Source: Candidatus Yanofskybacteria bacterium (GTDB taxonomy: Bacteria > Patescibacteriota > Minisyncoccia > 2-02-FULL-40-12 > GWA2-44-9). Taken from it: a stretch of DNA of 14,466 bases. Shown here one piece after another: positions 883 through 14,466 of this stretch. A model generated the notes under the pieces. That model was not told where the DNA came from. It ran no database searches and saw only the letters and a program-made list of their open reading frames with translations. Numbering within the stretch: the stretch's first letter is position 1; each line of letters begins with the position of its first letter. The position numbers and the translations under genes are program-made. The DNA lies in NCBI GenBank assembly GCA_016185505.1, contig JACPNL010000011.1, forward strand, positions 1 to 14,466. Reading direction: 5' to 3'.

Positions 883-920
883 GATAGAATGCTTTAAATA
901 GTTCTTTTTGGAGAAGTGCT

Positions 921-1337
921 TTGGCCCTTCTTAGATTAGCAGAAGAAAAAGACATTCCCCAGATCAAGAAAATTGCTGACGCGGATAAAAAATGTCTTGG
1001 TTTTATAAGTCGAGCGTGGCTCGGGGCTTCAATTGCAAAAGAGGAACTTCATATTGCCGTTCTTGATGGAGAAGTGGTTGGTTTTATCCGTTGGCACAAA
1101 CGTCGTGATGGAATGATTACCATTTACGATTTGTGTGTTGCCGAAAGATTCAGAAGAAAGAATATCGGCCAACAGCTCGTATCTGTTCTAGGTGATAGTT
1201 ATCTGCGATTAAAGTGCCATCAAGATAATCCGGCCCGCGATTTCTATAAACGTCTCGGCTTTGAAGTAGTGGGACTCGAGACCTCAAAAGGTGGAAGGAA
1301 GCTCAACATATTTGAAAGAAATAACGTCCCATTTTGA
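921..1337 (+). CDS. GNAT-family N-acetyltransferase
   Basis: 138-aa product with a GNAT acetyl-CoA binding pattern (VAERFRRKNIGQQLV ... FYKRLGFEVVG). TTG start at 921 preceded by GGAG at 910-913. The nearest in-frame upstream stop is at 885-887 and there is no ATG before 921. Confidence 0.7.
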   Translation: MALLRLAEEKDIPQIKKIADADKKCLGFISRAWLGASIAKEELHIAVLDGEVVGFIRWHKRRDGMITIYDLCVAERFRRKNIGQQLVSVLGDSYLRLKCHQDNPARDFYKRLGFEVVGLETSKGGRKLNIFERNNVPF

Positions 1338-1338
1338 A

Positions 1339-1364
1339 AAGACCGCAACCGGTCTTTATTTTAT
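1339..1364 (+). terminator. Rho-independent terminator after GNAT gene
   Basis: Stem AAGACCG (1339-1345) / CGGTCTT (1350-1356) with loop CAAC, followed by TATTTTAT. Confidence 0.6.
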
Positions 1365-1367
1365 AAA

Positions 1368-1396
1368 TATATGATATATCATAGTATCATATAATA
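1368..1396. promoter_or_regulatory. Palindromic operator-like motif (ATGATATATCAT + TATCATATAAT) overlapping a TATAAT -10 box, upstream of yerC-like gene
   Basis: TATGATATATCATA is a perfect palindrome at about 1370-1383. TCATATAAT follows at 1386-1394. The same motif recurs at 1881-1897. Confidence 0.45.
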
Positions 1397-1416
1397 GGTC
1401 TTAGTAATTTTACTAT

Positions 1417-1854
1417 ATGAAAGTTAGACCGAGAAAATTAGAAGGCAAGGATAGAATGAAGTATTTGGACACGCTTTATACGGCGATGTCCTCTTTAAAG
1501 TCCAGAGAAGAAATCAAGAGTTTTATGCGGGATTTACTGACAGAGAGCGAAAGAGTGATGCTAGGCCGCAGGATTCTAATAGCCAAGAAACTGTTGGAAG
1601 GCAAACTCTATACAGAGATTATTCAAGAAATGAAGGTGGGTATGGATACTATTATGAGAGTTCACAGGTGGCTTGAAGATGAAAATACCGGCTATGAAAA
1701 AGCCATTAAAGAATTAGACAAAACCCTGAAGGTTCGTGAAGAAAAGATAGAAAAATACAGGAACTATCCTACCACGGAATTCGGCAGGCTAAAAAGAAGA
1801 TACCCCCTACACTTCTTTTTGTTCAACTTATTCGACGAACTAAATAAAAAATAG
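1417..1854 (+). CDS. TrpR-like YerC/YecD family DNA-binding protein (alternative, better-supported start at 1456)
   Basis: LLTESERVMLGRRILIAKKLLEGKLYTEIIQEMKVGMDTIMRV matches the YerC/YecD Trp-repressor-like family. The ATG at 1456 is preceded by AAGGA (1446-1450), and B. subtilis YerC begins at the equivalent position. About 40-aa C-terminal extension. Confidence 0.6.
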   Translation: MKVRPRKLEGKDRMKYLDTLYTAMSSLKSREEIKSFMRDLLTESERVMLGRRILIAKKLLEGKLYTEIIQEMKVGMDTIMRVHRWLEDENTGYEKAIKELDKTLKVREEKIEKYRNYPTTEFGRLKRRYPLHFFLFNLFDELNKK

Positions 1855-1871
1855 TCAGTAGGTTATCATTT

Positions 1872-1897
1872 TATGATACTATGATATATCATATAAT
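1872..1897. promoter_or_regulatory. Second copy of palindromic ATGATA / TATCAT operator-like motif with TATAAT, upstream of Mur ligase gene
   Basis: TTATGATACTATGATATATCATATAAT shares ATGATATATCATATAAT with the site at 1371-1394. Confidence 0.45.
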
Positions 1898-1967
1898 TTA
1901 GTTTTTGTTTATTTTCTTTGTTTATTTTGGTTTTGTTATTCAAAAGTGTTATAAGTAAGTTATTCCT

Positions 1968-3455
1968 ATGTTCAAAGAAGGATTGTTGGACAAAATTTTA
2001 AGAAATATCAAAAAACTGATACCGAAGTCGGTATTTGATTTTTTTGCGCCGGTTTATCATGCTACTTTAGCTTATGTCGGGGCTTTTTTGTACGGATTTC
2101 CATCACGTTCAATGAAGGTCATCGGTGTGACGGGAACTAAAGGCAAGTCAACGACGGTTTTTTTGATAAGTAAGATTTTGGAGGCGGCAGAATTAACGAC
2201 ATCGGAAGGCCAAAGGACTTCCGATGTCAATGTGGAGGAGCGCCCTCCACAAGGCGGGGTGGCGGCAATCGGGTCTCTCGGATATAAAATAAAAGATAAA
2301 GAATGGCCGAATACTCTGAAAATGACAATGCCCGGCCGGTTCAAATTGCAGAAATTCCTGGCCGAAGCCAAAAGAGCCGGATGCAAGTATGTGGTTCTTG
2401 AAGTGACTTCGGAGGGCATCAAACAAAAGCGCCATATGGGAGTAAAATTTGATTGTGCCGTGTTTACTAATCTGCACGAAGAGCATATTGAAAGTCACGG
2501 TTCTTTTAAAAATTACTATAAAGCCAAGCAGGAATTATTCAAAAAGACCTCAAATATTCACGTAATTAATGCCGATGATCCCCGCGTAGATTTGTTTGGG
2601 AACTTTCCGGCAAAGCATAAGATATTTTATGGATTGGAAAAAGGGGATTTGGTTGCCGGCAAAATTCAGTCCACGGAAAAAGGAACATCATTTGAACTTT
2701 ATGGCACGCGCTTTGACACTCATTTGGCCGGAGAGTTTAATGTTATGAATTGTCTGGCGGCGCTGGCGGTGGGGGCGATGTATAAGATTGATTTGCCCGC
2801 GATGAAACCGGTTTTGGAGTCAATTAAATTTATTCCGGGAAGGATGGAGTTCATACAGCGGGAGCCGTTTGGAGTGGTGGTAGATTATGCGCACACGCCA
2901 GATTCTTTGCGAAGCGTTTATCAAACGCTTCGCAAGAATCTGGCGCAACCAACAACCAACCCCGCACCAAGCTTATCCGCTGACCGCCATTCAGAAAGGG
3001 GGCGGGCTTGGAGCGGGGCAGGCAACCGACAACCAACAACAGGAAAATTGATTTGTGTTCTTGGTGCGGCGGGCGGGGGTAGAGATAAATGGAAAAGGCC
3101 CGAATTCGGAAGAATCGCGTCGGAATACTGCGATGAGATTATTTTGACGAATGAAGACCCCTATGATGAAAATCCCCAAAGCATCATCAAAGATATTGAA
3201 AGGGGATTTTCATCGAAATTTTCAATTTTCAATTTTCAATTTTCAAATAAATCCCAATTACCAAATCACAAAATAATTCTTGACCGTCGTGAGGCAATTC
3301 AAACTGCCTTGACAGATGCCGGGGAAGGTGATACCGTTATTATCACAGGGAAGGGTTCGGAGACGTCAATGGCCGTCGCGGGGGGCAGGAAGCTCCCTTG
3401 GTCGGACAAGGATGTCGTCCGTGAAGCTCTTCGACAACAATCCTCCTGCGCATAA
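1968..3455 (+). CDS. Mur ligase family protein, MurE-like (UDP-N-acetylmuramoyl-tripeptide synthetase-like) lacking the canonical N-terminal domain; contains low-complexity in-frame insertions
   Basis: P-loop GVTGTKGKSTT, central domain VVLEVTSEGIKQKRH ... FTNLHEEHIESHG, MurE-type DYAHTPDSL motif, GAAGGGRDKWKRPEFG, C-terminal ITGKGSE. Only about 50 aa precede the P-loop, against about 110 in MurE. Confidence 0.8.
   Translation: MFKEGLLDKILRNIKKLIPKSVFDFFAPVYHATLAYVGAFLYGFPSRSMKVIGVTGTKGKSTTVFLISKILEAAELTTSEGQRTSDVNVEERPPQGGVAAIGSLGYKIKDKEWPNTLKMTMPGRFKLQKFLAEAKRAGCKYVVLEVTSEGIKQKRHMGVKFDCAVFTNLHEEHIESHGSFKNYYKAKQELFKKTSNIHVINADDPRVDLFGNFPAKHKIFYGLEKGDLVAGKIQSTEKGTSFELYGTRFDTHLAGEFNVMNCLAALAVGAMYKIDLPAMKPVLESIKFIPGRMEFIQREPFGVVVDYAHTPDSLRSVYQTLRKNLAQPTTNPAPSLSADRHSERGRAWSGAGNRQPTTGKLICVLGAAGGGRDKWKRPEFGRIASEYCDEIILTNEDPYDENPQSIIKDIERGFSSKFSIFNFQFSNKSQLPNHKIILDRREAIQTALTDAGEGDTVIITGKGSETSMAVAGGRKLPWSDKDVVREALRQQSSCA
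3217..3244 (+). repeat. 4 x AATTTTC heptamer tandem repeat inside Mur ligase CDS
   Basis: Direct reading: aattttc aattttc aattttc aattttc (encodes FSIFNFQFS). Confidence 0.9.
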
Positions 3456-3482
3456 AGCTACGGAGGACAAAGGAGAGAAGTG

Positions 3483-3866
3483 ATGTTTGAAGTGGTACTC
3501 TTTTTCGTCGTGGGAATTCTTGCGGTCGGTATTGGCGCCGCAATTGCGGTCGCCAATAACGAGGCGGTGTGGCTAGTGGCTAGCGTTATTGGAGCTGCTC
3601 TTCTTGGCATTACTACTTTCGACCTTGCTCCCCGAGCGTTGCCAACTGGAGCTCCGACTACTTCGATTGATGTCGGCGAGTATGCTCTTATGTACGTTGG
3701 TTCGTCCATGGTGGGTCATGTGGATGTGCTGACTATTAAGGATGCCGGAACACCTAGGACTTACTACCGATTTCCGACAGAAGCGTTTGATGGTGATATC
3801 AACATCAAAGCCACAAGACTAATTGTGGTGGAATCCGACGGATTCAAAAAACTGGTTCTGAAATAA
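3483..3866 (+). CDS. Hypothetical membrane protein (two N-terminal TM helices)
   Basis: Strong SD AGGAGAG (3471-3477) before the ATG at 3483 (GTG at 3480). Hydrophobic N-terminus VVLFFVVGILAVGIGAAIAVA ... LVASVIGAALLGI. GC content is higher than in neighbouring genes. Confidence 0.5.
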   Translation: MFEVVLFFVVGILAVGIGAAIAVANNEAVWLVASVIGAALLGITTFDLAPRALPTGAPTTSIDVGEYALMYVGSSMVGHVDVLTIKDAGTPRTYYRFPTEAFDGDINIKATRLIVVESDGFKKLVLK

Positions 3867-3867
3867 C

Positions 3868-3888
3868 GCGGGGTATCACCCCGTTTTA
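3868..3888 (+). terminator. Rho-independent terminator
   Basis: CGGGGT / ACCCCG stem (3869-3883) followed by TTTT. Confidence 0.55.
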
Positions 3889-4040
3889 TGTTGACGGAAA
3901 AGTTAAAAGGCCTATTGTATATTCAGTTGCCTTGACATCGACTGGAGACGGCCATTTCTTCCAACGCTACTTGCGAGGATTCTTCGCTAAAAACAAAGAA
4001 GAACAACCTGAAGAGATTTTATCGCGAAAACTTCCCCGGT

Positions 4041-4595
4041 TTGAAAATTCATCATCTTATACCTCGTAGCCGGGGCGGACAGACAGATTATTTTACTCTT
4101 TTCCCTTGGGATTTTATAAGTCACGATGCTTGGCATCAGCTTTTTTTAAATATGACCATTCAAGAGGTCTGGAATCGATTAGATGAAATTTATGCGGCTA
4201 TTTACTCGGAAGCAGAAATGGTTGTTCCATTTTGGGTGGGGGTCTGTACTCTTTACAAAGTCAGTCCCAAGAAACTCGCCAAATTTGAAGAACAAAAAAG
4301 AGATAAGCTCTCGTGGCCGGTAAGCGTCATTAAACTTCGGGATTTGTGGTTTAAGTGTTTTCGGAGTGATAATCTTGCGGATGCCAGGTCATTATTGTTG
4401 TATATGGCAATGTTTATGTTGTTTGGGTCCAAAATGATTGACCCTGAATCAATAAGCCAAGCTGACGCAGAATCACTGTTATCCCAAATACCTGATTTGC
4501 AGGATTATCAGCGTTGGGCGGTGAGCGTGTGCTTTAATCACGGCGTTAGTTCTATTTTTTCAAAAATCAACGAGTTTTATCTTGGCTCTCTTTAA
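4041..4595 (+). CDS. HNH-nuclease-motif protein (HHLIPRSRGG ... HDAWHQLF); start uncertain (TTG), possibly N-terminally degraded
   Basis: The HH-x-IP-x-S-x-GG plus H-x-AWH-x-LF pattern is typical of a small HNH (His-Me finger) family. The frame is open back to 3936 but has no ATG or GTG, so the TTG at 4041 was used. Confidence 0.4.
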   Translation: MKIHHLIPRSRGGQTDYFTLFPWDFISHDAWHQLFLNMTIQEVWNRLDEIYAAIYSEAEMVVPFWVGVCTLYKVSPKKLAKFEEQKRDKLSWPVSVIKLRDLWFKCFRSDNLADARSLLLYMAMFMLFGSKMIDPESISQADAESLLSQIPDLQDYQRWAVSVCFNHGVSSIFSKINEFYLGSL

Positions 4596-4611
4596 CGAGA
4601 GTTTTTTATTT
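4584..4611 (+). terminator. Rho-independent terminator (stop codon inside hairpin loop)
   Basis: CTCTC / GAGAG stem around the TAA, followed by TTTTTTATTTT. Confidence 0.5.
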
Positions 4612-4641
4612 TCAAGATTTATGTGGTAATATTCATATATT

Positions 4642-5142
4642 ATGGATATCGGGCGGCCACAACCAAATGACGAACCGAAACAGAGCGCAGAATTGTACCC
4701 TGCGGAATTTGCCGTTAGCAAAGTCGAAGCATCGCGGTTGCTTAAAAATTCAGGCCTGCCTTGGCTTTTGATAGTTCTGGTACTGGTACTTTTGGCTTTA
4801 TCTGTAAACATATTTAGACAGCCCGTTGCCTCGGATACGTCCGGTACTATCAGTTCATCTGTCGGGCCGACACCGGCGGTTCAGCCGAGGGTCTATACTG
4901 TTTCTTACAGGAACGGTGTTTTCAGTCCCACGAATCTAAGAATTCACGCCGGCGATACGGTGAGATTCAAGAATGAGAGTATATTTCCCATAAGAATAGT
5001 CGGAGACGATCTGGTCGGTTTCGATAGTATTGGTGACGTGCCCCAAGGAAGTTTTTTTGCTTTTACTTTTGCCGCTAGGGGAATATTCAGCTATCATAAT
5101 GAGAAGAGTCTCGACGAATCAGCTACGATAATAGTTCGATAA
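4642..5142 (+). CDS. Membrane-anchored cupredoxin-like (plastocyanin-fold-like) domain protein, no obvious Cu ligands
   Basis: TM helix LPWLLIVLVLVLLALSV, then a beta-rich domain YTVSYRNGVFSPTNLRIHAGDTVRFKNES...FSYH that resembles cupredoxin_1-like domains. The function call is weak. Confidence 0.35.
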   Translation: MDIGRPQPNDEPKQSAELYPAEFAVSKVEASRLLKNSGLPWLLIVLVLVLLALSVNIFRQPVASDTSGTISSSVGPTPAVQPRVYTVSYRNGVFSPTNLRIHAGDTVRFKNESIFPIRIVGDDLVGFDSIGDVPQGSFFAFTFAARGIFSYHNEKSLDESATIIVR

Positions 5143-5156
5143 TATGCGATACCAAT

Positions 5157-5218
5157 ATACTAATTCATACTAATGATACGAATAGTGTTTCGTTCTTCCA
5201 TTAGTATAATTAGTATGC
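5157..5218. repeat. Long imperfect inverted repeat (arms ATACTAATTCATACTAATG / CATTAGTATAATTAGTAT, 23-nt loop)
   Basis: The right arm (5199-5218) is the reverse complement of the left arm (5157-5175) apart from a one-nucleotide bulge. Each arm is itself a direct repeat of ATACTAAT. Confidence 0.7.
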
Positions 5219-5249
5219 ATTCGTATATTAGCATCGCGATAGTGTTAGC

Positions 5250-5417
5250 ATGAGAAATCTTTTAACCGTACAAATTGAGTCATATCTGGGCGCGGTATTT
5301 ATATCTCTTTTCGCGTTGTTTTTTATCGCGTTGATTTTCATTGTTATGAAAAACTTTGACTCGGAACTTAGCGTTATGCAATCTGAAAACCTCGAAGTTA
5401 AAATCTCTCCACGATGA
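5250..5417 (+). CDS. Putative 55-aa single-TM micro-protein, translationally coupled (ATGA overlap) to downstream gene
   Basis: MRNLLTVQIESYLGAVFISLFALFFIALIFIVMKNFDSELSVMQSENLEVKISPR. Its stop TGA (5415-5417) overlaps the ATG (5414-5416) of the next gene. No SD. Absent from the ORF track because it is short. Confidence 0.3.
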   Translation: MRNLLTVQIESYLGAVFISLFALFFIALIFIVMKNFDSELSVMQSENLEVKISPR

Positions 5418-6247
5418 TTCGATTAGGGCCCTTACTATTTATCAAGGAAGTAGTTCTTTTTGGCCTTACGCTGGCTCTTGGTCTCTATACCGCTTATTAT
5501 TACTCTTTTTACTTTACCGATCTGGTTCAGAATGGAATGGTGAATTTTACGCCGGCTGATCTGATTATTTTGGCTATTTTGTTCGTCGCTATTTTCTTTG
5601 TGGCGCGGCACAAGAGGGTTGCCCGCTTTTCCTTCAGGTTCTTTCTTATATTGATCGTCTTTTCCGGAACTCAAGTTGTGTTGGGCACTATTCTGCCTTC
5701 GCCTTGGGACTTGTTGTTTGCGGTTATCTTTACTTTAATATTCTCTATCGGTATTAATGTGTTGGTTCACAATCTAGGTATTATTCTTGGAATTGCCGGT
5801 ATTGCGGCTGTATTCGGTCTCTCTATTTCAATTGAGTTCGGGCTTGTCCTGTTGGTTGTTCTTTCTTTATATGACATAGTGGCCGTTTATGTGACAAAGC
5901 ACATGGTGACTATGGCCAGAAGTATGGTCGAAGGCGGTGCGGTGTTTGGATTTTTAATTCCGTTTGAGTTCAAAGGATTTTTTTATGGAAGAGATGAGGC
6001 AAAGGCCGGAATAGGGGAGAATTTCATGATACTTGGTTCGGGAGATATCGGATTGCCGCTTATTTTTGCGGTTTCTCTGGTTAGGGTTTCTCTGATATCC
6101 GCGATAATTACGGCCACATTCTCTTTGCTGGGATTATTTATTACTCACCTTCTTTTTATAAACCAAGGACAGCGAAGGGCAATGGCGGCTTTGCCACCGA
6201 TCGCGACACTTACAATAATTGGTTACCTTGTAACCCAATTATTGTAA
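5414..6247 (+). CDS. Polytopic membrane protein, presenilin / signal-peptide-peptidase-like (A22 family-like) intramembrane aspartyl protease candidate
   Basis: About 8 TM segments. Candidate catalytic motifs sit in TM helices: LSLYDIVAVY (YD), ILGSGDIGLPLIF (GxGD) and AALPPIA (PAL-like). Confidence 0.45.
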   Translation: MIRLGPLLFIKEVVLFGLTLALGLYTAYYYSFYFTDLVQNGMVNFTPADLIILAILFVAIFFVARHKRVARFSFRFFLILIVFSGTQVVLGTILPSPWDLLFAVIFTLIFSIGINVLVHNLGIILGIAGIAAVFGLSISIEFGLVLLVVLSLYDIVAVYVTKHMVTMARSMVEGGAVFGFLIPFEFKGFFYGRDEAKAGIGENFMILGSGDIGLPLIFAVSLVRVSLISAIITATFSLLGLFITHLLFINQGQRRAMAALPPIATLTIIGYLVTQLL

Positions 6248-6388
6248 ATTGACCTAATTATACTAATTAACCTAATTATTCTAAATAATGCCCAATACCT
6301 AATCACCAAATGCCTAAAACAGCTTGGTCATTCGGTCATTAGAATTTATTTAGGTCAATTAGATTAATTAGAACAATTAGAATAATTT
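6248..6388. repeat. About 140-bp AT-rich palindromic intergenic element (copy A) built from 9-bp TAATTNNNC units in inverted arms; MITE-like
   Basis: Left arm ttgacc taattatac taattaacc taattattc taaataat. Right arm atttattta ggtcaatta gattaatta gaacaatta gaataatt. Strongly similar to 13350-13495. It directly abuts the ATG at 6389. Confidence 0.7.
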
Positions 6389-7804
6389 ATGAAACTTACT
6401 TTCTATGGTGGTGCTCGCCAAGTGACCGGAGCCAACTACTTGTTGGAGTTGGGCCCCGACGCAAGGTCGGGGTCAACAACCAAGTTGTTGGTTGATTGCG
6501 GGATGTTTCAGGGTTCAAGGTATGCGGAAGACCTGAACTATGAAAAATTTCCATATGATCCGGCGGAGATTAATTTTATTTTTATCACTCATAGTCATAC
6601 CGACCACGCTGGACGCTTGCCCAAGTTGTATAAAGAAGGATTCAGGGGCAAGGTCGTTGCGACAAACGCGACCCTTGATCTTATCAGAAAAGCTCTGCCG
6701 GACAACTTAAGATTGATAGAACAAGAAGCAAAAGATACTGGACGAGAACCACTGTTCTCTCTTGAGAACTTGGAAGGTGTTCTTAATTTGGTTCAGGGAG
6801 TTGATTATGAGGAAAATATTGAATTAGGTGGTGGTCTTGAAGTTAAATTACATGATGCCGGACACATATTGGGTTCTTCCATCGTGGAAATACGATGGAA
6901 GAACAAATCCGAAATCCGAAATCCGAAATCCGAAAATAATTCGAAACATCTTTACTTTACCGGTGATCTGGGGAATCCCCCGACACCCTTATTGAAATCG
7001 CCTTATTACCCCAATGATGCTGATTATGTCGTTATAGAGTCCGCCTACGGTTCAAGAACTCACGAGGATAAGGCCGAAAGAAAGAATATTTTACAGAAGA
7101 TCATAATTGAAACCATCCAAAGAGGTGGTGTGCTGACGATACCTTCGTTCGCGATGGAAAGAACGCAGGAACTTCTCTATGAACTCAATGGTCTGTTCAA
7201 CGACAATAAAATTCCCAAAGTACCCGTTTTTGTCGATTCTCCTCTGGCTACCAATTTGACCGAGGTGTACAGAAAGCATTCGGATTATTTCAATAAAGAA
7301 ACTATGTATATAATTAATTCCGGTGACGATATATTTAATTTTCCCGGGCTAAAATTCACTCGTACCACCGAAGAATCAAAACAGATAAACGATGTTACTC
7401 CGCCGAAGATAATAATTGCCGGCTCGGGAATGTCTACCGGCGGCCGGATATTGCATCACGAAAGGCGTTATCTGCAGGATCCGAATTCCACTATTCTGTT
7501 CATCGGTTATCAAGTAAAAGGTTCTTTGGGCAGGAGAATTTTGGATGAGGAAAAAGAGGTCAAAATATTCGGCGAAAAAGTTACCGTGAACTGCAAAGTG
7601 GAGGCGATAGGAGGATACTCCGCTCACGCCGACAGCGAAGGGCTTTTGGAATGGGTCAAAACCGCGAACAGCGAAGGTAAATTAAAAAAGGTATTTGTGG
7701 TGCAAGGCGAAGAGGATTCCTCATTGGCTCTCGCAAGAAAAATAGAAAGAGCGCTGGAAATTGATGCGGTGGTGCCGAAGCAAGGGGAAGGGTTCGAGTT
7801 GTAG
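6389..7804 (+). CDS. MBL-fold metallo-hydrolase, beta-CASP RNA-metabolising family (RNase J / CPSF-like ribonuclease)
   Basis: HSHTDHAG (HxHxDH), LVDCGMFQG, a beta-CASP region and C-terminal GGYSAHAD. 471 aa. Confidence 0.8.
   Translation: MKLTFYGGARQVTGANYLLELGPDARSGSTTKLLVDCGMFQGSRYAEDLNYEKFPYDPAEINFIFITHSHTDHAGRLPKLYKEGFRGKVVATNATLDLIRKALPDNLRLIEQEAKDTGREPLFSLENLEGVLNLVQGVDYEENIELGGGLEVKLHDAGHILGSSIVEIRWKNKSEIRNPKSENNSKHLYFTGDLGNPPTPLLKSPYYPNDADYVVIESAYGSRTHEDKAERKNILQKIIIETIQRGGVLTIPSFAMERTQELLYELNGLFNDNKIPKVPVFVDSPLATNLTEVYRKHSDYFNKETMYIINSGDDIFNFPGLKFTRTTEESKQINDVTPPKIIIAGSGMSTGGRILHHERRYLQDPNSTILFIGYQVKGSLGRRILDEEKEVKIFGEKVTVNCKVEAIGGYSAHADSEGLLEWVKTANSEGKLKKVFVVQGEEDSSLALARKIERALEIDAVVPKQGEGFEL
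6905..6932 (+). repeat. 4 x AAATCCG heptamer tandem repeat inside MBL-fold ribonuclease CDS
   Basis: aaatccg x4 (encodes SEIRNPKSE). Confidence 0.9.
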
Positions 7805-8032
7805 AGCGAAACTATCAAATAATTTTTTACGCCTTACGCTCCATTAACAAATCTTGCAATAATTTATCATTGTTCAGACAAAAATTTAGCACCCGTTCCT
7901 CCCTTCGGGATTTTCCGGCTAAATTTTTGGAAGATTACCTGAACAATTTCTAAATTATCTTGGATTTGTGATAAAGGAGCGTAAACGCTAGAAAAATTAC
8001 TTAACAGTTTCGCTCTTTGGATGCTTTGATTT
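7803..8032. repeat. Long palindromic element C1: about 40-bp inverted arms (GAGCGAAACTNNCAAATAATTTTTTANGCCTTNCGCTCC) enclosing a palindromic cargo capped by a UUCG hairpin
   Basis: Left arm 7804-7842 and right arm 7976-8015 are near reverse complements. The inner pairs ATTAACAAATCTTGCAATAATTTATCATTGTTCAG / CTGAACAATTTCTAAATTATCTTGGATTTGTGAT and AAAAATTTAGC / GCTAAATTTTT flank TCCCTTCGGGA. The start overlaps the TAG stop of the MBL gene. A second copy lies at 9695-10109. Confidence 0.7.
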
Positions 8033-8083
8033 TTACTCTTTGCTATTTTGCCAACAAAGTTTAATCATACACAACACAGAGCT

Positions 8084-8668
8084 TTACTTCTCCCAATTTC
8101 CGAGGCGGGGTGGGTTGTTGTTGGGCCACGTAAAGTGGCGTGGCCACCATGTGGCTTTACGCCAGTCGGCCAACATTACGAGGATTTTTACCAGCAATGG
8201 CTTGTTGTCGCGAGCTATCATCGCTATTGCGCAGGCGCGGTGCATTCCTTCGGCTATGCAAATGTCGCCGTTAGGCAGACGAGTGGCGGTTAGAGTTGTT
8301 TCCGTTCCGTTAAAATTATTCGCGATATCTCGTATATACCAGTGATTATGAACTCCCGGATGGGTGAGCAGGTCTTTGAGTCGCGGCGGCTGTTCGGGAA
8401 AAGAATTGTAGAACCATTTGCTCCAACCGTGGAACATTCCGCCTCGCCATTCGGGGATAGTTGCAAGCGGTTTGGGAACTTCGTAGAGTCCCCATTTTAA
8501 TTCTCGAGAAAACAACGGCGCATGGGTTTTCTTTCTCCATTCCTCCCACGATTTGTGCCCCTTTGCTTCCCAAAACGGTTTCCAGTGCTCAACACCTTCT
8601 TCCATCTTCCGCCAACTCTCAAAAACTTCATTAGGGGTCAGTGGTTTTATGAATTTTAATTCGTCCAT
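8084..8668 (-). CDS. Hypothetical Trp-rich protein with possible ParB/Srx-like (DGxHR-type) motif
   Basis: The only convincing minus-strand ORF (194 aa). PNGDICIAEGMHRACAIAMIARD resembles the ParB/sulfiredoxin-fold DGHHR region. Unusually rich in Trp. The overlapping plus-strand ORFs 8040-8345 are judged spurious. Confidence 0.45.
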   Translation of the reverse strand: MDELKFIKPLTPNEVFESWRKMEEGVEHWKPFWEAKGHKSWEEWRKKTHAPLFSRELKWGLYEVPKPLATIPEWRGGMFHGWSKWFYNSFPEQPPRLKDLLTHPGVHNHWYIRDIANNFNGTETTLTATRLPNGDICIAEGMHRACAIAMIARDNKPLLVKILVMLADWRKATWWPRHFTWPNNNPPRLGNWEK

Positions 8669-8757
8669 GTTCTTAAGTTATCACTTCTGTTTAATGAAGT
8701 AAAATAAAATTTCGGATACTCGATGAATTGAAATTAGCAAGTTTCTTGAACCTTTAT

Positions 8758-8799
8758 TCTTGTCTCAATTTTCCTCGTACGAGGAAAATTGAGACAAGA
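8758..8799. promoter_or_regulatory. 42-bp perfect palindrome in divergent intergenic region (candidate operator / cruciform)
   Basis: TCTTGTCTCAATTTTCCTCGTA | CGAGGAAAATTGAGACAAGA is perfectly self-complementary. It lies between the minus-strand gene start (8668) and the plus-strand gene start (8909). Confidence 0.6.
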
Positions 8800-8908
8800 G
8801 TTATTCGTATCCTATTTTTAGGGGGATAATTTTGAGTGAAGCAAAGTAAAGAGTGTGCTCTGGTTATCCCTTTGAAGAATTTGTTATAAGTTGTAAGATG
8901 AAATCATT

Positions 8909-9631
8909 ATGACAAACGATAAAAAGGGGCAACTCAACTTGCCGGCGTCTAAATTACCGGCAGAAAAACCCAAAAAAGGGGAGGATTTTAGAAAGTCGCT
9001 TCACTGGCGGGTGTTCAGGATACTTTCCGAATTTGTGGAGGGCTGGCAGTTTTTGGCCGATTTCAAAAAGACTGTTTCGTTTTTCGGTTCTGCTAGAACT
9101 CCCGAAGGCGATAAATGGTACGAGGAAGCGCGCAAGCTTGGGAAACTGGCGGCCGAGGGAGGATTTGCGGCAGTAACCGGTGGAGGTCCCGGCATTATGG
9201 AAGCGGGCAACCGCGGCGCCGTTGAGGGCAACGGCAAGTCCATTGGCATAAACATACAACTAGAAACGGAGCAAAGAATTAACCCTTATGTGCAGGAGAG
9301 TACCGCTTTCCACTATTTTTTTGTCAGAAAAGTCATGCTGTCATTTGCCGCTCAGGCGTATGTGTTTTTTCCCGGCGGGTTGGGAACGTTAGATGAGGTG
9401 TTTGAATTGGTGACTCTCATCCAAACCAAAAAAATATCAGAAAAGATCCCCGTTGTTCTGCTTGGAAAGGACTTTTGGGAGCCGATAGACAAGCTTTTAA
9501 GAGAAAATTTTTACGAAAAATATCAGACCATTGATAAAGAAGATCTCAATATTTATAAAATAGTCGACTCCGCCGAAGAGGCATATGAACTCATCAAAAA
9601 CGCCCCACCTAGAGAGGACTGGTATTATTAG
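8909..9631 (+). CDS. LOG-family protein (cytokinin riboside 5'-monophosphate phosphoribohydrolase-like; TIGR00730 / YvdD-type)
   Basis: VTGGGPGIMEAGNRGA and FPGGLGTLDEVFE are the LOG / lysine-decarboxylase-like family motifs. About 240 aa. Confidence 0.8.
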   Translation: MTNDKKGQLNLPASKLPAEKPKKGEDFRKSLHWRVFRILSEFVEGWQFLADFKKTVSFFGSARTPEGDKWYEEARKLGKLAAEGGFAAVTGGGPGIMEAGNRGAVEGNGKSIGINIQLETEQRINPYVQESTAFHYFFVRKVMLSFAAQAYVFFPGGLGTLDEVFELVTLIQTKKISEKIPVVLLGKDFWEPIDKLLRENFYEKYQTIDKEDLNIYKIVDSAEEAYELIKNAPPREDWYY

Positions 9632-9694
9632 TTGGTCAAGCCAGCTGAGCTGGCTCAACCCCACTAAATTTTGAGAAAAGGCATACTCTTGCAG

Positions 9695-10109
9695 TAGAGC
9701 GAAACTGCCAAATAATTTTTTAGCCTTCCGCTCCAGGAGAGCAGGATTCAAACTCCCATCGTCTTGAGAGACCCAAAAATGAGATGATTTCTTTGGTGTG
9801 ACGACGAAGATGTAGTTTAACACTACTTCGAGGAGGCACAACAAAGAAAGCGTCCATTTTTGGGCTCCCCCTTGGGGCGGGGCGGACTTACTTATCTGCT
9901 TCGTTGTCCAGATTCCTTCGGAATCGAGGATCCTCGATTGCTTCGCAATCGGGACTCGTCGCTTACGTACCGTTAAGGTACGCATCACTCCTCGCGCCTC
10001 GCATATAAGCAAGTCCGCTCCCGCTCAATTGATGCGAGTTTGAATCCTGCTCTCCTACGTCAACGCTAAAAAATTATCTGACCAGTTTCACTCTCTGGAT
10101 GCTTTGATT
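9695..10109. repeat. Palindromic element C2: same outer arms as C1, carrying a different, nested cargo
   Basis: TAGAGCGAAACTGCCAAATAATTTTTTAGCCTTCCGCTCC (9695-9734) matches the C1 left arm. ACGCTAAAAAATTATCTGACCAGTTTCACTC TCTGGATGCTTTGATT (10062-10109) matches the C1 right arm and tail. Confidence 0.7.
9735..10056. mobile_element. Nested 322-bp element with perfect 21-bp terminal inverted repeats (AGGAGAGCAGGATTCAAACTC ... GAGTTTGAATCCTGCTCTCCT), highly structured interior; MITE-like or structured ncRNA
   Basis: Perfect TIR 9735-9755 / 10036-10056. The interior holds several perfect hairpins: ATTCC-TTCG-GGAAT, CGATTGC-TTCG-GCAATCG, GTACC-GTTAA-GGTAC and the CGAGGATCCTCG palindrome. No ORF. 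Confidence 0.55.
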
Positions 10110-10324
10110 CAATCGATGATGTTGGAAAGAAACAAACTATTCATTCTCAAAATTTAGAGGGGTCTCGCTCCTCAACGCTAATTTTTCCGTGTTTTCCGAT
10201 TTTTCAGCGCTTCTGTGGTTAAAATTACCCAACGGCCTCGCTCCTCGGACGTTTTTATTTAATCGACGCAACAAGGGGTCTCGCTCCTTTGTGTTGTTGT
10301 GCTTGGTATTTTTGATGGGGCAGG

Positions 10325-10354
10325 TTGACAAAGCATAGCCCAATATGCTACAAT
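10325..10354 (+). promoter_or_regulatory. Near-consensus sigma70 promoter for nfeD-flotillin operon (TTGACA - 18 bp - TGCTACAAT) with palindrome AGCATA-N6-TATGCT in spacer
   Basis: TTGACA at 10325-10330. TACAAT at 10349-10354, preceded by an extended -10 TG. Inverted repeat AGCATAGCCCAATATGCT in the spacer. Confidence 0.55.
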
Positions 10355-10440
10355 ATTTTGGAAATCTCGAGTTGCCAGAAGGGCTCTCGAGATGGCAGTT
10401 CGTTCACAACTGTGGAGAGCCACGGAGAGAGGAAGGGGAT

Positions 10441-10968
10441 ATGCCACTGTTTATCGTCGCCGGGCTCATGGGGTTCCTGTTCTTCGTTGGGGCACTGATT
10501 TTCGGTGACCACGACGTCGGGCACGACCATGACTTTGATGGCGACCATGACCATGGAGGGTCGAGCGTGTTTTCGGTCTTCAATGTGTCATGGTTTCTCA
10601 TCGGGTTCGGCGGAATGGGGGCGGTTATCAGGGCCAATGACGTGGGGATGCCCGGAAGCACGATGTCCGGTCTCGCGACCGGTATTGCTTGCTGGGGCCT
10701 CGCTTTCTGCGTCATGCACCTGCTTGCAAAACAGCAGGGTGATTCAACCGTGACAGTCGCACGCATCATGAATGCGACTGGTACGGTCGTGATGTCTATT
10801 CCCGCAAACGGGGTGGGCAAGGTCCAGTGCAGTGTGGCCGGAAGCTTGCAAGAGTTTCTGGCTCGCTCGACGACACCGGTTTCGTTGTCGGAAGGTTCTC
10901 AAGTGAGAATCGTCGGCGATGCCGGTGGTGTGTACTTGGTGGAAGCTCAAACACAAGGAGGCAGGTGA
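10441..10968 (+). CDS. NfeD-like membrane protein (short NfeD / YuaF-like, partner of SPFH-flotillin)
   Basis: Start at the ATG at 10441 behind GAGGAAGGGG. The ATG at 10345 lies inside the -10 box. Two TM helices, a His/Asp-rich loop (DHDVGHDHDFDGDHDHGG) and a C-terminal beta domain. The stop overlaps the SD of the downstream flotillin gene. Confidence 0.65.
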   Translation: MPLFIVAGLMGFLFFVGALIFGDHDVGHDHDFDGDHDHGGSSVFSVFNVSWFLIGFGGMGAVIRANDVGMPGSTMSGLATGIACWGLAFCVMHLLAKQQGDSTVTVARIMNATGTVVMSIPANGVGKVQCSVAGSLQEFLARSTTPVSLSEGSQVRIVGDAGGVYLVEAQTQGGR

Positions 10969-10969
10969 C

Positions 10970-11269
10970 ATGGAGTTTTGGAAACAGCTCTCGGCAAACC
11001 TCGGATGGGTTATCGGAACAGTCCTACTGTTCATAGCCATCCTTGGTTCTCTTCGTTACGCGGCAAGCCGGTACAAGAAAGTGCCGCCAAGCCGCGTCGG
11101 GATCATCTACGGCCGTAAGCAGATCTATGAGATCCCGCAACAGGATGGAACCGTAAAGCAGGAGAAGCTTGGATTCCGCCTGCTCACCGGCGGCGGCGCG
11201 CTTGTCCTCCCGTTCTTGGAAGACTATGCCGAGTTGGACCTAAGCGCTCGACGTGATGATCGACGCTAG
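10970..11269 (+). CDS. Flotillin (SPFH-domain, FloT/YuaG-like) N-terminal fragment - interrupted by +1 frameshift near 11243-11256
   Basis: Strong SD AAGGAGG (10954-10960). MEFWKQ...VLLFIAILG TM helix, then GRKQ...FRLLTGGGALVLPFLEDYAELDLS matching flotillin (RGGGTFVFPVFEEVEKLSLEVM). The frame then runs into RRDDRR-stop. Confidence 0.7.
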   Translation: MEFWKQLSANLGWVIGTVLLFIAILGSLRYAASRYKKVPPSRVGIIYGRKQIYEIPQQDGTVKQEKLGFRLLTGGGALVLPFLEDYAELDLSARRDDRR

Positions 11270-12701
11270 AGGCACAGCTACTGTCGTGATCGGAACCGAT
11301 ACGTCGAGTCTCATCACTGCCGCTCGCAACTTCGAAGGTAAGAAGGAACAGGATATCAACCAGATTGCCCGGGAAAACCTGGAAGGCCAACTGCGGTCGA
11401 TTCTCGGCACCTTGACGGTTGAAGACCTGATCGGTGAGCGCAAGAAGCTCAATGAGGCGGTCTTGGAAGGTGCGGAGAGTGAGCTTCTGAAGCTCGGTCT
11501 GCGCATTTCCATCCTGACCATTCAGGAGATCACTGACCAGGTTAAGTACATCGAATCGCTGGGCAAAAAGCGTACCGCCGAAGTTCAGCGGGATGCTACT
11601 ATCGGCGAAGCCGAGGCGCAAAGCAAAGCCAAGATCGCGGCAAGCAACGCCACGAAAGAAGCCGAGACTGTCGCCGCGCAGAACGAAGTCAAGATCGCCG
11701 AGGCCAAGAAGGAGCGTGACGTTCAAGTTGCGCAATTCAAGGCATTGACCGATCGCGAAAAGGCGATTGCCGAACAGGCAGGCGCCATCGCGGCGGCCGA
11801 AGCGGACAAGACAGTGCGTCAGAGGAAGGTTGAGGCCGAAGCGGCCGAGACCACTGCGCGTATCCAACTCGCCGATCAGGAGACTGCTCGTGTCGAGAAG
11901 GAACTGCAGTTCCAGGTCATCAAACCGGCCGAAGCGCAGAAGCAGGCCGCGGTTATCAGGGCCGAGGGAAACAAGCAGACAGGTATCCTCGACGCCGAAA
12001 CCAAGAAGAGGCAACAGGTCATTCAAGCTGAAGCGGCTTTCGAAGCAGCTGCCAAGCAGGCCGACGCGACTCGAACCAAGGCTGAGGCTGATGGTGATGC
12101 TGCGGCAGCAATCGGCAAGGGCGACGCCGAAGCCGTACGTCTAAAGCTCACAGCTGAAGCCGATGGCGAGAAGGCAAAGCGTCTTGCCGCCGCCACGGGT
12201 ACCGAAGCTGAACTGCGGGCGGCTGCATCCGGCAAGGAAGCAGAACTGCTTGCAGAGGCACGCGGTGCTGAAGCAAAGCTCCTCGCAGAGGCCAAGGGTA
12301 AGGAACAGCTGGCTCTCGCGCTTGCCAAACTGGATCAGACAGGCAAACTTCTACAGGTGCTCGACGCAGCCCCCAAGGTTGCAGAGGCCCTGGGCGAAGC
12401 TCTCGCCAAGGCGCTCGGGCCCGACGGCCTTGCCAACGTGTTCGGCCAGATGGCCGCTCCGCTCGGCAGTGTTGACTCGATCCGGATGTATGATTTCGGC
12501 GGGAATGGCCATAACGGTAATGGTGCCGGATCGTTGGCCAAGTATGCCAACATCACACCGGAGCTGTTCTTCAATTTCGTCTCGAAGGCGACGGCACTGG
12601 GTTTCGGGTCTTTGCTCGAGAAGGTCGGGCTGACCTCCGAGATTCTGGACGACATGACAACTTCGGTTTCAACAGGGGCCGATGCATCCGAATCGAAGTA
12701 G
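11253..12701 (+). CDS. Flotillin C-terminal portion (SPFH core, EA-rich flotillin coiled-coil repeats, C-terminal domain); continues the 10970 frame after +1 shift (frame open from 11244)
   Basis: LDVMIDARGTATVVIG...ITDQVKYIESLGKKRTAEVQRDATIGEAEAQSKAKIA aligns with B. subtilis FloT. Long AEA/EAKA repeats follow. Confidence 0.8.
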   Translation: MMIDARGTATVVIGTDTSSLITAARNFEGKKEQDINQIARENLEGQLRSILGTLTVEDLIGERKKLNEAVLEGAESELLKLGLRISILTIQEITDQVKYIESLGKKRTAEVQRDATIGEAEAQSKAKIAASNATKEAETVAAQNEVKIAEAKKERDVQVAQFKALTDREKAIAEQAGAIAAAEADKTVRQRKVEAEAAETTARIQLADQETARVEKELQFQVIKPAEAQKQAAVIRAEGNKQTGILDAETKKRQQVIQAEAAFEAAAKQADATRTKAEADGDAAAAIGKGDAEAVRLKLTAEADGEKAKRLAAATGTEAELRAAASGKEAELLAEARGAEAKLLAEAKGKEQLALALAKLDQTGKLLQVLDAAPKVAEALGEALAKALGPDGLANVFGQMAAPLGSVDSIRMYDFGGNGHNGNGAGSLAKYANITPELFFNFVSKATALGFGSLLEKVGLTSEILDDMTTSVSTGADASESK

Positions 12702-12714
12702 CTCGTTCATTCAT

Positions 12715-12748
12715 AGAGGTCGGGGTAACAACCCCGACCTCTATTCTT
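12715..12748 (+). terminator. Terminator-like 12-bp perfect hairpin after flotillin
   Basis: AGAGGTCGGGGT-AACA-ACCCCGACCTCT followed by ATTCTT (weak U-tract). Confidence 0.5.
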
Positions 12749-12764
12749 AGGAGAGGAGAAAACA

Positions 12765-13220
12765 GTGAAGTACCAACTCACAGAAGGTATTCCGGACGCT
12801 CTCGTGATTCACTGTGCCGATCCGCGTTTTCAGGAAGCCTTCAGAGCCTACCTGAAGAATGATCTCGGTATACGTATGCCGATGATCATAGCGTTGCCTG
12901 GCGTGACCAGCCACTTCGGGATGCAGATGATGTTTCCGAAGAACTGGTACACAGTAAGGTCACACCTCAAGACCATGACAGATCGTCACGATGTGGCACG
13001 AGTCGTCCTTATCAATCACGACGACTGCAAGGGCTACGCCAAGATTGCCGATAAGCTTGGTGGTCTGGTGAAAGTTCCAGAGTGGCAGCGCAAGCACCTC
13101 CATGGCCTGGCAGAGTTTATCAGAAAGGAATATCTGCCTCACGCCTCTTTTGAACTCTACCAAGCGCATATCGTTGAGAAAGGCAGTGTGCGTGAGGTCG
13201 AGTTCGAGAAAATCTTGTAG
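12765..13220 (+). CDS. Hypothetical protein with beta-carbonic-anhydrase-like CxDxR ... HxxC motif arrangement (HCADPRF ... NHDDCKGY)
   Basis: GTG start behind AGGAGAGGAG (12749-12758). 151 aa. The spacing of the Cys-Asp-Arg and His-x-x-Cys motifs resembles the zinc ligands of minimal beta-CAs. The function call is tentative. Confidence 0.5.
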   Translation: MKYQLTEGIPDALVIHCADPRFQEAFRAYLKNDLGIRMPMIIALPGVTSHFGMQMMFPKNWYTVRSHLKTMTDRHDVARVVLINHDDCKGYAKIADKLGGLVKVPEWQRKHLHGLAEFIRKEYLPHASFELYQAHIVEKGSVREVEFEKIL

Positions 13221-13263
13221 GTTCTACGCCGCCGGTCTGATACTTACAACGGCTAACGCCGAC

Positions 13264-13312
13264 GCCCCCTTCGGGGGCCAGAGGGGGACACGTGTCCCCC
13301 TTTTAATTTTTT
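13264..13312 (+). terminator. Tandem intrinsic terminators (CCCCC-UUCG-GGGGG hairpin, then GGGGGACAC/GTGTCCCCC perfect hairpin + TTTTAATTTTTT)
   Basis: 13264-13278 GCCCCCTTCGGGGGC. 13283-13300 is a perfect 18-bp palindrome followed by a T-run. Confidence 0.8.
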
Positions 13313-13349
13313 AAAAAGTGTGATAATATAAATACAAAATATAAACACC

Positions 13350-13495
13350 CCCAATTATTCTAATTATACTAATTATTCTAATTACTCTAAATAATGACTA
13401 ATCCCCAATCATTAAATGACCAAATCGATTTAGTCATTGAGTCGTTGGGATTTATTTAGGTCAATTAGGTTAATTAGAATAATTAGGTTAATTTA
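13350..13495. repeat. Copy B of the about 140-bp TAATTNNNC-unit palindromic element (see 6248-6388)
   Basis: ctaattatactaattattctaattactctaaataatg ... atttatttaggtcaattaggttaattagaataattaggttaatt. The central part contains the near-perfect palindrome AATGACCAAATCGATTTAGTCATT. Confidence 0.7.
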
Positions 13496-13537
13496 TTGCC
13501 CTGTTTGGTTCCTGTGCTTTGTGTTTTAGCTATGTAA

Positions 13538-14466
13538 GATTTTAAAATCAACAACATCCTTATCCCCGAAGAGCTTCCTCTTATCGCTCTGAAAAACACC
13601 GTCTTATTCCCAAAGGCGGTTATTCCGCTTATCGTTCAGCGGCCCAAATCGGTCAGCGCTTTGGAGTACGCTCATTTAACTGATCGGCTGGTGTTTTTTG
13701 CCACCCAGAGAAGCACCGAAGACGATGTGAACAAAAAAGATATTTTCACTGTGAACAAAAAAGATATTTTCACTACCGGCGTTATCGGCAGGATAATCTC
13801 CGTTCTCAAATTACCCGACGGTTCTTCCAAAGTTGATGTTGAGGGTTTGGTCAGAGCAAGGATAACGGAAATTACCAACGAAGAACCATTCTTCAGGATA
13901 AAGGCCGCTCCGTTCTCGTTGACGGTCAGGGATAGTTTAGAAGAAAAAGCGCTCCTTCGGAAAGCCATAGAGCAGTTTCGAATGATCTCGGAAGTAAGAG
14001 CATTTCCAACAATCCTTCCCGAAATTATATATATGATGTCGCAGATCAAAGACACCGAGCATATTATAAGTTTGATGGCGGTTAATTCCGGTTTAGAAAT
14101 AGAAGATCAGCAAAATGTCCTTGAAATGGAGAGCGCGATAGACGCCTTACGCCAACTAAACACGTATCTGGCCAGAGAGTCGGAATTATTGGAAGCCGAG
14201 AAAAAAGTCGCTAAGGAAACCAAAAAACAACTCGGCAAGATGCAGAAGGAATTGTTTTTGCGGGAGCAACTCAAAAGCATAGAGAAAGAATTGGGCGTTG
14301 ATGACGAGAAAGGCGAAATGGAAACGATAAAACACAAGATAGCCGCCGCGGGAATGCCCAAAGAAGTTGAAGAAAAGGCAAGCAAAGAACTTCATCGTCT
14401 AGGCAAAATGCCGCCATTCAATCCCGAGGTCTCATATCTTCGCACCTATCTTGACTTGATGGTTGA
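13538..14466 (+). CDS. lon: ATP-dependent Lon protease, N-terminal (LON substrate-binding) domain onward; 3' partial (runs off window); start codon unresolved
   Basis: LPLIALKNTVLFPKAVIPLIVQRPKSV ... LKLPDGSSKVDVEGLVRARI is the canonical Lon N-domain. The frame is open from 13538 to the window end. There is no in-frame ATG, GTG or TTG before the LPL motif. The ATG at 13532 is followed immediately by TAA. Confidence 0.8.
13727..13774 (+). repeat. Perfect 24-bp tandem duplication inside lon (VNKKDIFT x2)
   Basis: gtgaacaaaaaagatattttcact occurs twice in direct tandem. Confidence 0.9.

Follow-up and report, generated by a model that had tools for sequence, protein, structure and literature searches.

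A GC-rich NfeD-flotillin-carbonic-anhydrase-like cassette, probably acquired horizontally, in the LOG-Lon spacer of a Yanofskybacteria genome

The DNA examined here (the window) is a whole contig of 14,466 nt from a metagenome-assembled genome of 'Candidatus Yanofskybacteria', a lineage that NCBI taxonomy places in the Parcubacteria group of Patescibacteria (candidate phyla radiation, CPR). Its gene order (FemAB, TrpR-like, Mur ligase, SPP, beta-CASP, LOG, Lon) is matched by the contigs of the closest LOG homologues, and the spacer between LOG and Lon contains a GC-rich island with genes for an NfeD-like protein, a flotillin and a beta-carbonic-anhydrase (CA)-like protein. We consider it highly probable that positions ~10320-13312 represent a self-contained operon cassette that was horizontally transferred into this spacer. 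The initial annotation had proposed either an acquisition or a chimeric metagenomic assembly. Empty sites in relatives, the presence of the cassette in many CPR assemblies and a contrast at synonymous sites speak for acquisition, and a chimera is strongly disfavoured.

A probably foreign operon between LOG and Lon

The cassette would comprise a sigma-70-type promoter, a leader, the NfeD-like gene, a FloT-like flotillin gene, a conserved hairpin, the beta-CA-like gene and a terminator. The features of the island are the following:

10325-10354, + strand: cassette promoter, TTGACA and TACAAT with an 18-nt spacer and an upstream TG, 11/12 consensus positions
10355-10440, + strand: 5' leader with a hairpin (TCTCGAG at 10365-10371 with CTCGAGA at 10386-10392), a sequence box and a Shine-Dalgarno (SD) site
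10441-10968, + strand: NfeD-like membrane protein, 175 aa, upstream partner of flotillin; start set by alignment with six homologues
10970-11269, + strand: flotillin 5' fragment with the membrane anchor and the start of SPFH; premature stop after the junction 11251/11253
11253-12701, + strand: flotillin 3' fragment in another frame, with the rest of SPFH, an Ala/Glu-rich coiled coil and the C-terminal domain
12713-12744, + strand: conserved intergenic hairpin between flotillin and the third gene, perfect 14-bp stem
12765-13220, + strand: beta-carbonic-anhydrase-like protein, 151 aa, Pfam Pro_CA_2 (PF20393)
13262-13312, + strand: right boundary of the island, formed by the operon terminator (two GC-rich hairpins and then a T-run)
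11184-12026, - strand: antisense open reading frame (ORF), wholly antisense to flotillin, with a low-complexity translation

The island deviates from the host in each of the composition checks that had been suggested for it (sliding GC, tetranucleotides and codon usage). Its GC content is 56.3% at 10341-13320 versus 42.5% in the flanking coding DNA. In the sliding profile a plateau of 0.54-0.61 extends over ~10400-12800, with a peak of 0.60-0.61 in 400-nt windows, followed by ~0.51-0.52 up to 13200, while the rest of the window ranges between 0.31 and 0.51. The GC-rich block is therefore as initially described, but it stands against flanks of ~42% GC and not of 35-40%. Its start had been placed at ~10.1 kb, whereas the true left edge in composition and homology lies between ~10320 (the promoter) and 10441, and 10113-10300 consists of AT-rich host-type repeats. 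Only ~3 kb of the 3.9-kb LOG-Lon spacer is foreign. GC content at third codon positions (GC3) is 0.653 in the NfeD-like gene, 0.65 in both flotillin fragments and 0.625 in the third gene (overall range 0.625-0.67), i.e., 3.4-4 sd away from the 12 host genes (0.35-0.54, mean ~0.456, sd ~0.05). When the island proteins were recoded with host codon usage, the expected GC was 0.45-0.515 and the expected GC3 0.46-0.49, and thus about half of the GC excess is owed to amino-acid composition (the flotillin is Ala-rich) and about half to synonymous codon choice. Tetranucleotide correlations (r) between the island and 3-kb host segments were -0.04 to 0.02, as opposed to 0.81-0.91 among host segments and between the host and a related genome.

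Comparison loci were fetched and labelled L0xx or L1xx. Over most of its length the window is collinear with L090, since 139-9630 is ~80% identical to L090 1319-10692, and 13538-14466 is 85% identical to L090 10799-11703. In the syntenic loci L090, L091 and L092 LOG is followed directly by Lon and there is no cassette; the spacer measures 106 nt in L090 and 333 nt in L091. The possibility raised at the outset that the island sits at the same locus in all relatives is thereby contradicted. A second insertion site was found in the 39-kb JGI contigs L096 and L100 and in the fragment L093, which share the backbone synteny of the window and carry the cassette between beta-CASP and LOG. L096 is a more distant syntenic relative than L090 and L091/L092. 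Comparison of the window with L096 gave 4-fold-site identities of 0.28-0.43 (saturated) in eight backbone genes and 0.55-0.67 in the three cassette genes. This contrast indicates that the cassettes share a far more recent ancestor than the genomes that carry them. Taken together with the empty sites, it means that the cassette must have moved horizontally among Parcubacteria.

The cassette resembles classical genomic islands in its deviant GC, GC3, codon usage and tetranucleotides, in its absence from the orthologous site of syntenic relatives, and in a gene phylogeny and divergence incongruent with the host, the tree being a neighbour-joining (NJ) one only. It differs from them in being only 3 kb long, in consisting of a single operon, and in lacking an integrase or transposase, a tRNA target and flanking direct repeats: no integrase or transposase domain was detected in any ORF of the window, ARAGORN reported no tRNA in it, and no direct repeats were seen at the island boundaries. 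Given the absence of all these hallmarks, insertion would have occurred by illegitimate recombination into a repeat-rich spacer. The locus is a clean example of operon-sized gene flow into and among CPR genomes in which no mobile-element machinery is recognisable; its controls are the empty site, the second position that the cassette occupies in a syntenic relative, and the contrast at synonymous sites. For users of this genome, the island is genuine CPR DNA and not contamination, although it is recently acquired accessory DNA with a broken central gene and is unsuited to taxonomic or compositional inference.

Relatives of the cassette, its origin and alternative explanations

The same promoter-to-stop unit was found in at least 6-8 other gene neighbourhoods of related CPR-type genomes, among them:

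L001: pilins, ligase, GatCA
L003 (cassette 2980-5876): SecDF, sigma factor, DUF87/TraG-like
L004: thymidylate synthase, DHFR, DCD; third gene absent
JGI contig 3300071358 (cassette 313-3217): pilin arrays of a type IV secretion system (T4SS)
L010, a 149-kb Zambryskibacteria scaffold: LeuRS, YchF
L094: TK, ThiF

The homologue search suggested for tracing a donor clade showed that the close relatives are all of CPR type and that the nearest ones outside CPR belong to Acidobacteriota (Terriglobia/Bryobacterales). The examined contigs of close flotillin homologues (65-87% identity) were CPR-type in every case, with an NfeD-like gene upstream, and none came from a high-GC organism. A Pro_CA_2 gene lies 3' of flotillin in all examined close relatives except L004/L005. 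DNA homology of the window to its relatives is limited to 10434/10441-13213/13223, with the promoter type and a leader box extending slightly upstream. The closest sampled cassette is ~80-81% identical in DNA, and the acquisition can be called recent in a relative sense only. Among GTDB species genomes, the best flotillin matches were Zambryskibacteria (69%), followed by Terriglobia (52%) and Bryobacterales (42%), while other CPR flotillins are 36-38% identical to that of the window. Acidobacteriota-type cassettes have an identical three-gene order and a flotillin 51-53% identical. In an NJ tree of flotillins (100 bootstraps), the window and 14 CPR-type sequences form a clade (99%) that joins a Terriglobia/Bryobacteraceae clade (85%), and other CPR flotillins (Buchananbacteria, P0103 and P0114) are placed elsewhere.

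The cassette may have entered Parcubacteria from an Acidobacteriota-like lineage of higher GC content and may later have spread among them, each copy partly drifting toward the composition of its host. The GC3 difference, cassette minus host, amounts to +0.19 (window), +0.13 (L001), +0.09 (L010), +0.08 (L003) and +0.03 (L004). In L006 and L008, two loci of Acidobacteriota type in which the composition is native, it is ~0 or negative. An excess of +0.03 to +0.19 in CPR hosts, largest in the window, fits an origin at higher GC with partial drift. We infer, rather than demonstrate, that transfer ran from Acidobacteriota to CPR. The high-GC donor proposed at first applies at most to this deep origin, because the close relatives all reside in low-GC CPR-type genomes, and for the same reason the immediate donor of the window copy was probably another CPR bacterium. 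That a three-gene module was captured from Acidobacteriota (Terriglobia/Bryobacterales-like) and is now circulating among Parcubacteria as a cassette free of mobility genes is a speculative extension that we hold to be rather unlikely. If it is true, and if the cells on which CPR bacteria live are their main source of acquired genes, Acidobacteriota would be indicated as the hosts of these episymbionts, and the beta-CA-like protein would be a previously undescribed conserved partner of flotillin. A literature search on gene transfer involving Patescibacteria, Acidobacteria and episymbionts returned nothing relevant.

In viral contigs no related cassette was found and flotillin-like genes were at best 28-29% identical, which gives no indication of a phage vector. 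None of the cassette proteins matched a defence system in PADLOC. In L003 and JGI contig 3300071358 the cassette lies a few genes from T4SS-like genes (DUF87/TrwB/TraG-like and T4SS pilin arrays, respectively), a possible hint of conjugative carriage. L021, from Buchananbacteria, contains at 8304-10709 a phylogenetically distinct NfeD-flotillin pair with a GC3 of 0.55-0.67 versus 0.30-0.42, suggesting that the import of flotillin operons into CPR genomes is a recurrent event. In L010, a second GC-rich block at 14500-16200 (0.50-0.57 versus ~0.38) encodes a Pro/Ala-rich protein of 379 aa.

Several alternatives to a transferred cassette have to be weighed. A GC-rich block of another organism might have been misjoined into a CPR contig during metagenomic assembly. 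The composition does change abruptly, with a tetranucleotide r of ~0 versus the host; both edges adjoin repeats that have other copies in the contig, and repeats are where assemblers can misjoin; and the contig has further oddities, namely the 41-nt deletion, the early stop in Lon (codon 2) and a 24-nt duplication. A chimera would nevertheless need two misjoins returning exactly to the same LOG-Lon locus, and the repeat copies, 81-93% identical over 29-144 nt, are too diverged for k-mer confusion. Moreover, numerous independent assemblies (from ENA, JGI, Logan and NCBI) place the cassette within a CPR-type backbone, among them a 39-kb contig syntenic with the window and the 149-kb Zambryskibacteria scaffold, and the exclusive occurrence of the examined close homologues on CPR-type contigs, none of them from a high-GC organism, also speaks against a misjoin. 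JGI metagenomes contained no exact match to the cassette promoter (0 matches), so no independent assembly of this exact junction was found. Overall, we regard a chimera as very unlikely. It is also very improbable that the cassette belongs to another locus of the same genome and was threaded between LOG and Lon through copies of the flanking miniature inverted-repeat elements (MITEs), here named MITE-A and MITE-B. Several members of both families do occur within 14 kb, and the syntenic L096 has its cassette on the other side of LOG, but the copies are diverged, the region upstream of LOG (8669-8908, including the hyp194 gene) runs collinear with L090 without any scar, and the cassette would be foreign to the lineage in either case.

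Vertical inheritance, which we consider unlikely as well, would mean an ancestral cassette near LOG that disappeared from the lineages of L090 and L091 and moved to the opposite side of LOG in one lineage; protein composition and selection for expression would then account for the high GC and GC3. In its favour, both insertions in this backbone are next to LOG, about half of the GC excess stems from amino-acid composition, the flotillin gene has a somewhat higher GC content than the DNA around it in Acidobacteriota-type loci too, and GC3 exceeds that of the host in all CPR copies. However, the difference in 4-fold-site identity between cassette (0.55-0.67) and backbone (0.28-0.43) in the comparison of the window with L096 is incompatible with simple co-divergence, and two losses and one relocation would be needed. 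The cassette is also found in unrelated neighbourhoods elsewhere, the flotillin tree groups it with Acidobacteriota and not with other CPR flotillins, and its strong SD sites are atypical for the host. A number of observations weigh against horizontal transfer of a self-contained cassette or limit its details. The nearest cassette, at only ~80% DNA identity, fixes neither donor nor date; part of the GC excess reflects Ala-rich protein composition alone; and the elevated GC3 in every CPR copy could reflect selection rather than incomplete drift. The tree is a simple NJ tree in which the immediate sister relationship to Terriglobia receives 33-62% support only, and there is no mobility gene, tRNA or target duplication at the insertion. 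Furthermore, both known insertions in this backbone adjoin LOG, and a single ancestral insertion with later rearrangement, loss and allele replacement is an unlikely but conceivable alternative. We still favour horizontal transfer of the cassette.

The three genes and their expression signals

Homology bore out the three gene identities proposed for the island, the first of them at family level. The NfeD-like protein of the window, searched alone, gave no Pfam match at E <= 1; PF01957 (NfeD) was matched by 4/7 members of its family (best E 1.9e-6), and the family profile weakly matched YuaF of B. subtilis (PDB 2k14, E 0.31) in the C-terminal domain. The protein is 37% identical to its Bryobacteraceae counterpart, and the position and architecture of its gene are consistent with a flotillin partner.

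The flotillin gene is preceded by the SD sequence AAGGAGG at 10955-10961, and its translation shows a hydrophobic N-terminus as well as Ala/Glu-rich repeats. The 3' fragment, annotated by NCBI as a hypothetical protein of 471 aa, matches Pfam Band_7 (PF01145, E 2.3e-15) from profile position 60 onward, and the intact relative P0001 matches the NCBIfam FloT model NF058507 with 208.8 bits (E 1.6e-61), the equivalog cutoff being 700. An nfeD-flotillin operon had been described here, and the gene identities hold, but it was overlooked that the flotillin is split into 10970-11269 and 11253-12701 and that the window has no intact flotillin frame. In comparison with seven relatives (L001, L003, L004, L093, L095, L096 and L097), 41 nt encoding LIPLEVKQIPTQGG are absent, whereby 14 conserved codons of a conserved SPFH strand are lost and the frame is shifted at 11251/11253. 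Because of this frameshifting deletion, the central gene is a pseudogene as assembled and the island is decaying; alternatively, the assembly consensus captured a deletion variant. Programmed frameshifting was considered and rejected, since the change of frame coincides with the loss of 14 codons kept in all relatives. At the deletion endpoints (window 11237-11260) a possible short microhomology of the CGGC type is seen in some relatives.

The third protein matches PF20393 with E 5.9e-8 and 33.4 bits (curated cutoff 30). C17, D19, R21, H85 and C88, which preserve the C-x-D-x-R ... H-x-x-C pattern of the Zn-ligand motif, are invariant in 37 homologues and are also present in Acidobacteriota-type homologues; together with the Pfam score above cutoff, these residues support a predicted beta-CA-like identity. 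The AlphaFold model has a pLDDT of 94.3, and the top PDB folds retrieved by Foldseek were the beta-CAs 6y04 and 1g5c, as weak matches (E 3.5e-4 and 4.6e-4, TMq 0.51 and 0.44); fold matches overall had TM 0.44-0.55 at 11-16% identity. Searching the Pro_CA_2 profile against PDB sequences gave only chance TroA matches (E ~0.9). The protein thus shares with beta-class CAs (Pro_CA, PF00484; e.g., Cab, PDB 1g5c) the motif pattern and the best PDB folds, and it differs from them in being much shorter (151 aa), in belonging to the separate family PF20393, in the weakness of the fold matches and in having no sequence-level PDB match.

It is 33-34% identical to the product of the same-position gene in the Acidobacteriota-type loci L006 and L008. 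A profile search of all fetched loci revealed a Pro_CA_2-like gene directly 3' of flotillin in 36 loci, of which 21 are among the 80 loci from species-representative genomes and belong to Fraserbacteria, Bipolaricaulota/Acetothermia, Thermotogae and several Acidobacteriota classes. Loci from many non-CPR phyla with this gene right after flotillin include L013-L017, L019, L023-L031, L035, L041, L044, L086 and L089. NfeD, flotillin and the CA-like protein appear to form a widespread three-gene module, seemingly undescribed, in which the beta-CA-like protein is the recurrent third partner of NfeD-flotillin operons across phyla. Pfam family PF20393 was unmentioned in the literature searched.

The closest known systems are NfeD-SPFH operons such as yuaF-floT(yuaG)-yuaI of B. 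subtilis. In both, a small NfeD-like membrane protein is encoded directly upstream of a FloT-like flotillin; the cassette flotillin has an SPFH/Band_7 domain and a long Ala/Glu-rich coiled coil, and the NfeD-like family profile is weakly similar to YuaF. Unlike these operons, the cassette has a beta-CA-like Pro_CA_2 protein as its third gene product instead of the GNAT acetyltransferase YuaI, its flotillin, judged by the intact relative P0001, scores 208.8 bits against the FloT cutoff of 700, the window copy is broken by the 41-nt deletion, and the window NfeD-like protein alone falls below Pfam NfeD. By family membership, the NfeD partner and the flotillin may form a membrane-microdomain scaffold, with the beta-CA-like protein as an accessory with a predicted Zn site. 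For SPFH genes with NfeD partners, horizontal transfer at a high rate has been reported (Hinderhofer et al., 2009, PMC2636767). Both this type of operon and its frequent transfer are accordingly already known, and the present case is ordinary gene transfer, unusually well controlled. Less ordinary are the bare promoter-to-terminator cassette without mobility genes, the link between Acidobacteriota and CPR and the beta-CA-like third gene.

The expression signals named in the initial annotation were largely recovered as described. The TTGACA/TACAAT promoter, with its 18-nt spacer and 11/12 consensus positions, is the sole site of this type within 9400-13700, and promoters of the type TTGAC[AT]...TA..AT also precede the cassette in L003 (TTGACA...CTACAAT), L096, L095 and L001. 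In the leader, the semi-conserved box GTTCGTTCACAA (10398-10409) aligns in 6/6 cassettes. Strong SD sites in all three island genes, set against mostly weak ones in the host, were borne out by anti-SD duplex energies of -11.4 (NfeD-like), -12.7 and -11.6 kcal/mol versus +0.2 to -6.8 kcal/mol in host genes, with one at -9.5, and strong sites are retained in all cassette copies. The GC-rich hairpin terminators were likewise found, with GCCCCCTTCGGGGGC at 13262-13277 and a hairpin at 13280-13303 followed by the T-run TAATTTTTTA. The perfect 14-bp hairpin at 12713-12744 occurs at the equivalent place in six cassettes, with changes on both sides preserving 4/11 pairs (compensatory); judged from its sequence, it may be a terminator-like or attenuator-like element. 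The long antisense ORF at 11184-12026 is present as well and, being of low complexity and without any NCBIfam family match, it is judged spurious here too.

Flanking repeats and the remainder of the contig

The island sits between host-lineage repeats on both edges, which belong to different repeat families:

9658-10163, no strand assigned: MITE-A, nested imperfect palindrome of ~500 nt left of the island; host-lineage repeat, not foreign
10203-10288, + strand: solo MITE-A right end with copies 2 and 3 of the direct repeat AGGGGTCTCGCTCCT; last host-type DNA before the island
13341-13496, no strand assigned: MITE-B, AT-rich palindromic repeat with 9-nt periodicity; right flank, host-type

MITEs are miniature inverted-repeat elements. 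The arms of MITE-A are nested (9658-9677/10144-10163, 9709-9727/10062-10080, 9735-9760/10031-10056 and 9906-9930/9931-9955), its folding z is -12.3 on the + strand and -15.2 on the - strand, and its inner hairpins are capped by tetraloops. Its ends at 9694-9722 and 10058-10109 are 93% and 83% identical, respectively, to the termini of a shorter hairpin element (7801-8031), and family copies are found in relatives at L090 8966-9089 and L091 16938-17166. Members of the family are intergenic and hairpin-forming and share the termini AGAGCGAAACT..CAAATAATTTTT. The solo end occupies 10203-10265, where 10221-10266 is 89% identical to L090 9044-9089. The direct repeat AGGGGTCTCGCTCCT has three copies, at 10158, 10231 and 10274, the first of which lies just left of 10203-10288. 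Rfam (E <= 1) gave only chance matches of microRNA/sRNA type on hairpins and none on the 500-nt palindrome, and the palindrome with its upstream region had no match in plasmid or phage collections.

On the right, MITE-B (13353-13496) is a second copy of the element at 6247-6390, with 81% identity over 144 nt. Its copies are built of 9-nt periodic AATTA..CT units, an arrangement reminiscent of iterons or of an array bound by protein. The flanking elements resemble MITE/REP-like repeats in their terminal inverted repeats, their several diverged intergenic copies and their strong hairpin potential; they differ in that no target-site duplication (by eye) and no parent transposase (within 14 kb) were identified, and in that the left copy is nested and ~500 nt long. 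Two further candidates were rejected. A composite transposon bounded by the flanking repeats is ruled out by their belonging to different families, and a tRNA-like integration site, proposed on account of the T-loop-like GGATTCAAACTC in the palindrome arms, is ruled out since ARAGORN found no tRNA and there is no T-arm pairing.

Downstream of MITE-B, the Lon gene of the window begins with ATG TAA GAT (13532-13540), i.e., with a stop at codon 2 (TAA, 13535-13537); the corresponding starts are ATG TCG CAA CCC GAT in L090, ATG GCA GAT in L091 and ATG GCT GAT in L096. No alternative in-frame ATG, GTG or TTG start lies close by in the window. The stop could be a lesion or an error of the consensus, or else the gene uses a non-canonical start. 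Lon also contains a perfect 24-nt tandem duplication at 13726-13773 (VNKKDIFT twice), which is absent from L090, where the alignment is 24 nt shorter.

Upstream, the Mur ligase gene (1968-3455) encodes 495 aa in the window versus 455 and 436 aa in relatives. A low-complexity insert rich in Pro, Thr, Ser and Arg falls within 2916-3051, a stretch not alignable to L090. The TrpR/YerC-like gene is flanked by a 31-nt AT-rich inverted repeat (1365-1395 and 1868-1898, 94% complementary) that recurs in L090 (3099-3129 and 16039-16077) and, from its placement, may be a candidate operator for the TrpR/YerC-like regulator. Finally, the beta-CASP ribonuclease-like gene is intact in the window (471 aa) and split into two called ORFs (192 and 270 aa) at L090 7397-8784, which indicates that frame disruptions are common in these assemblies.

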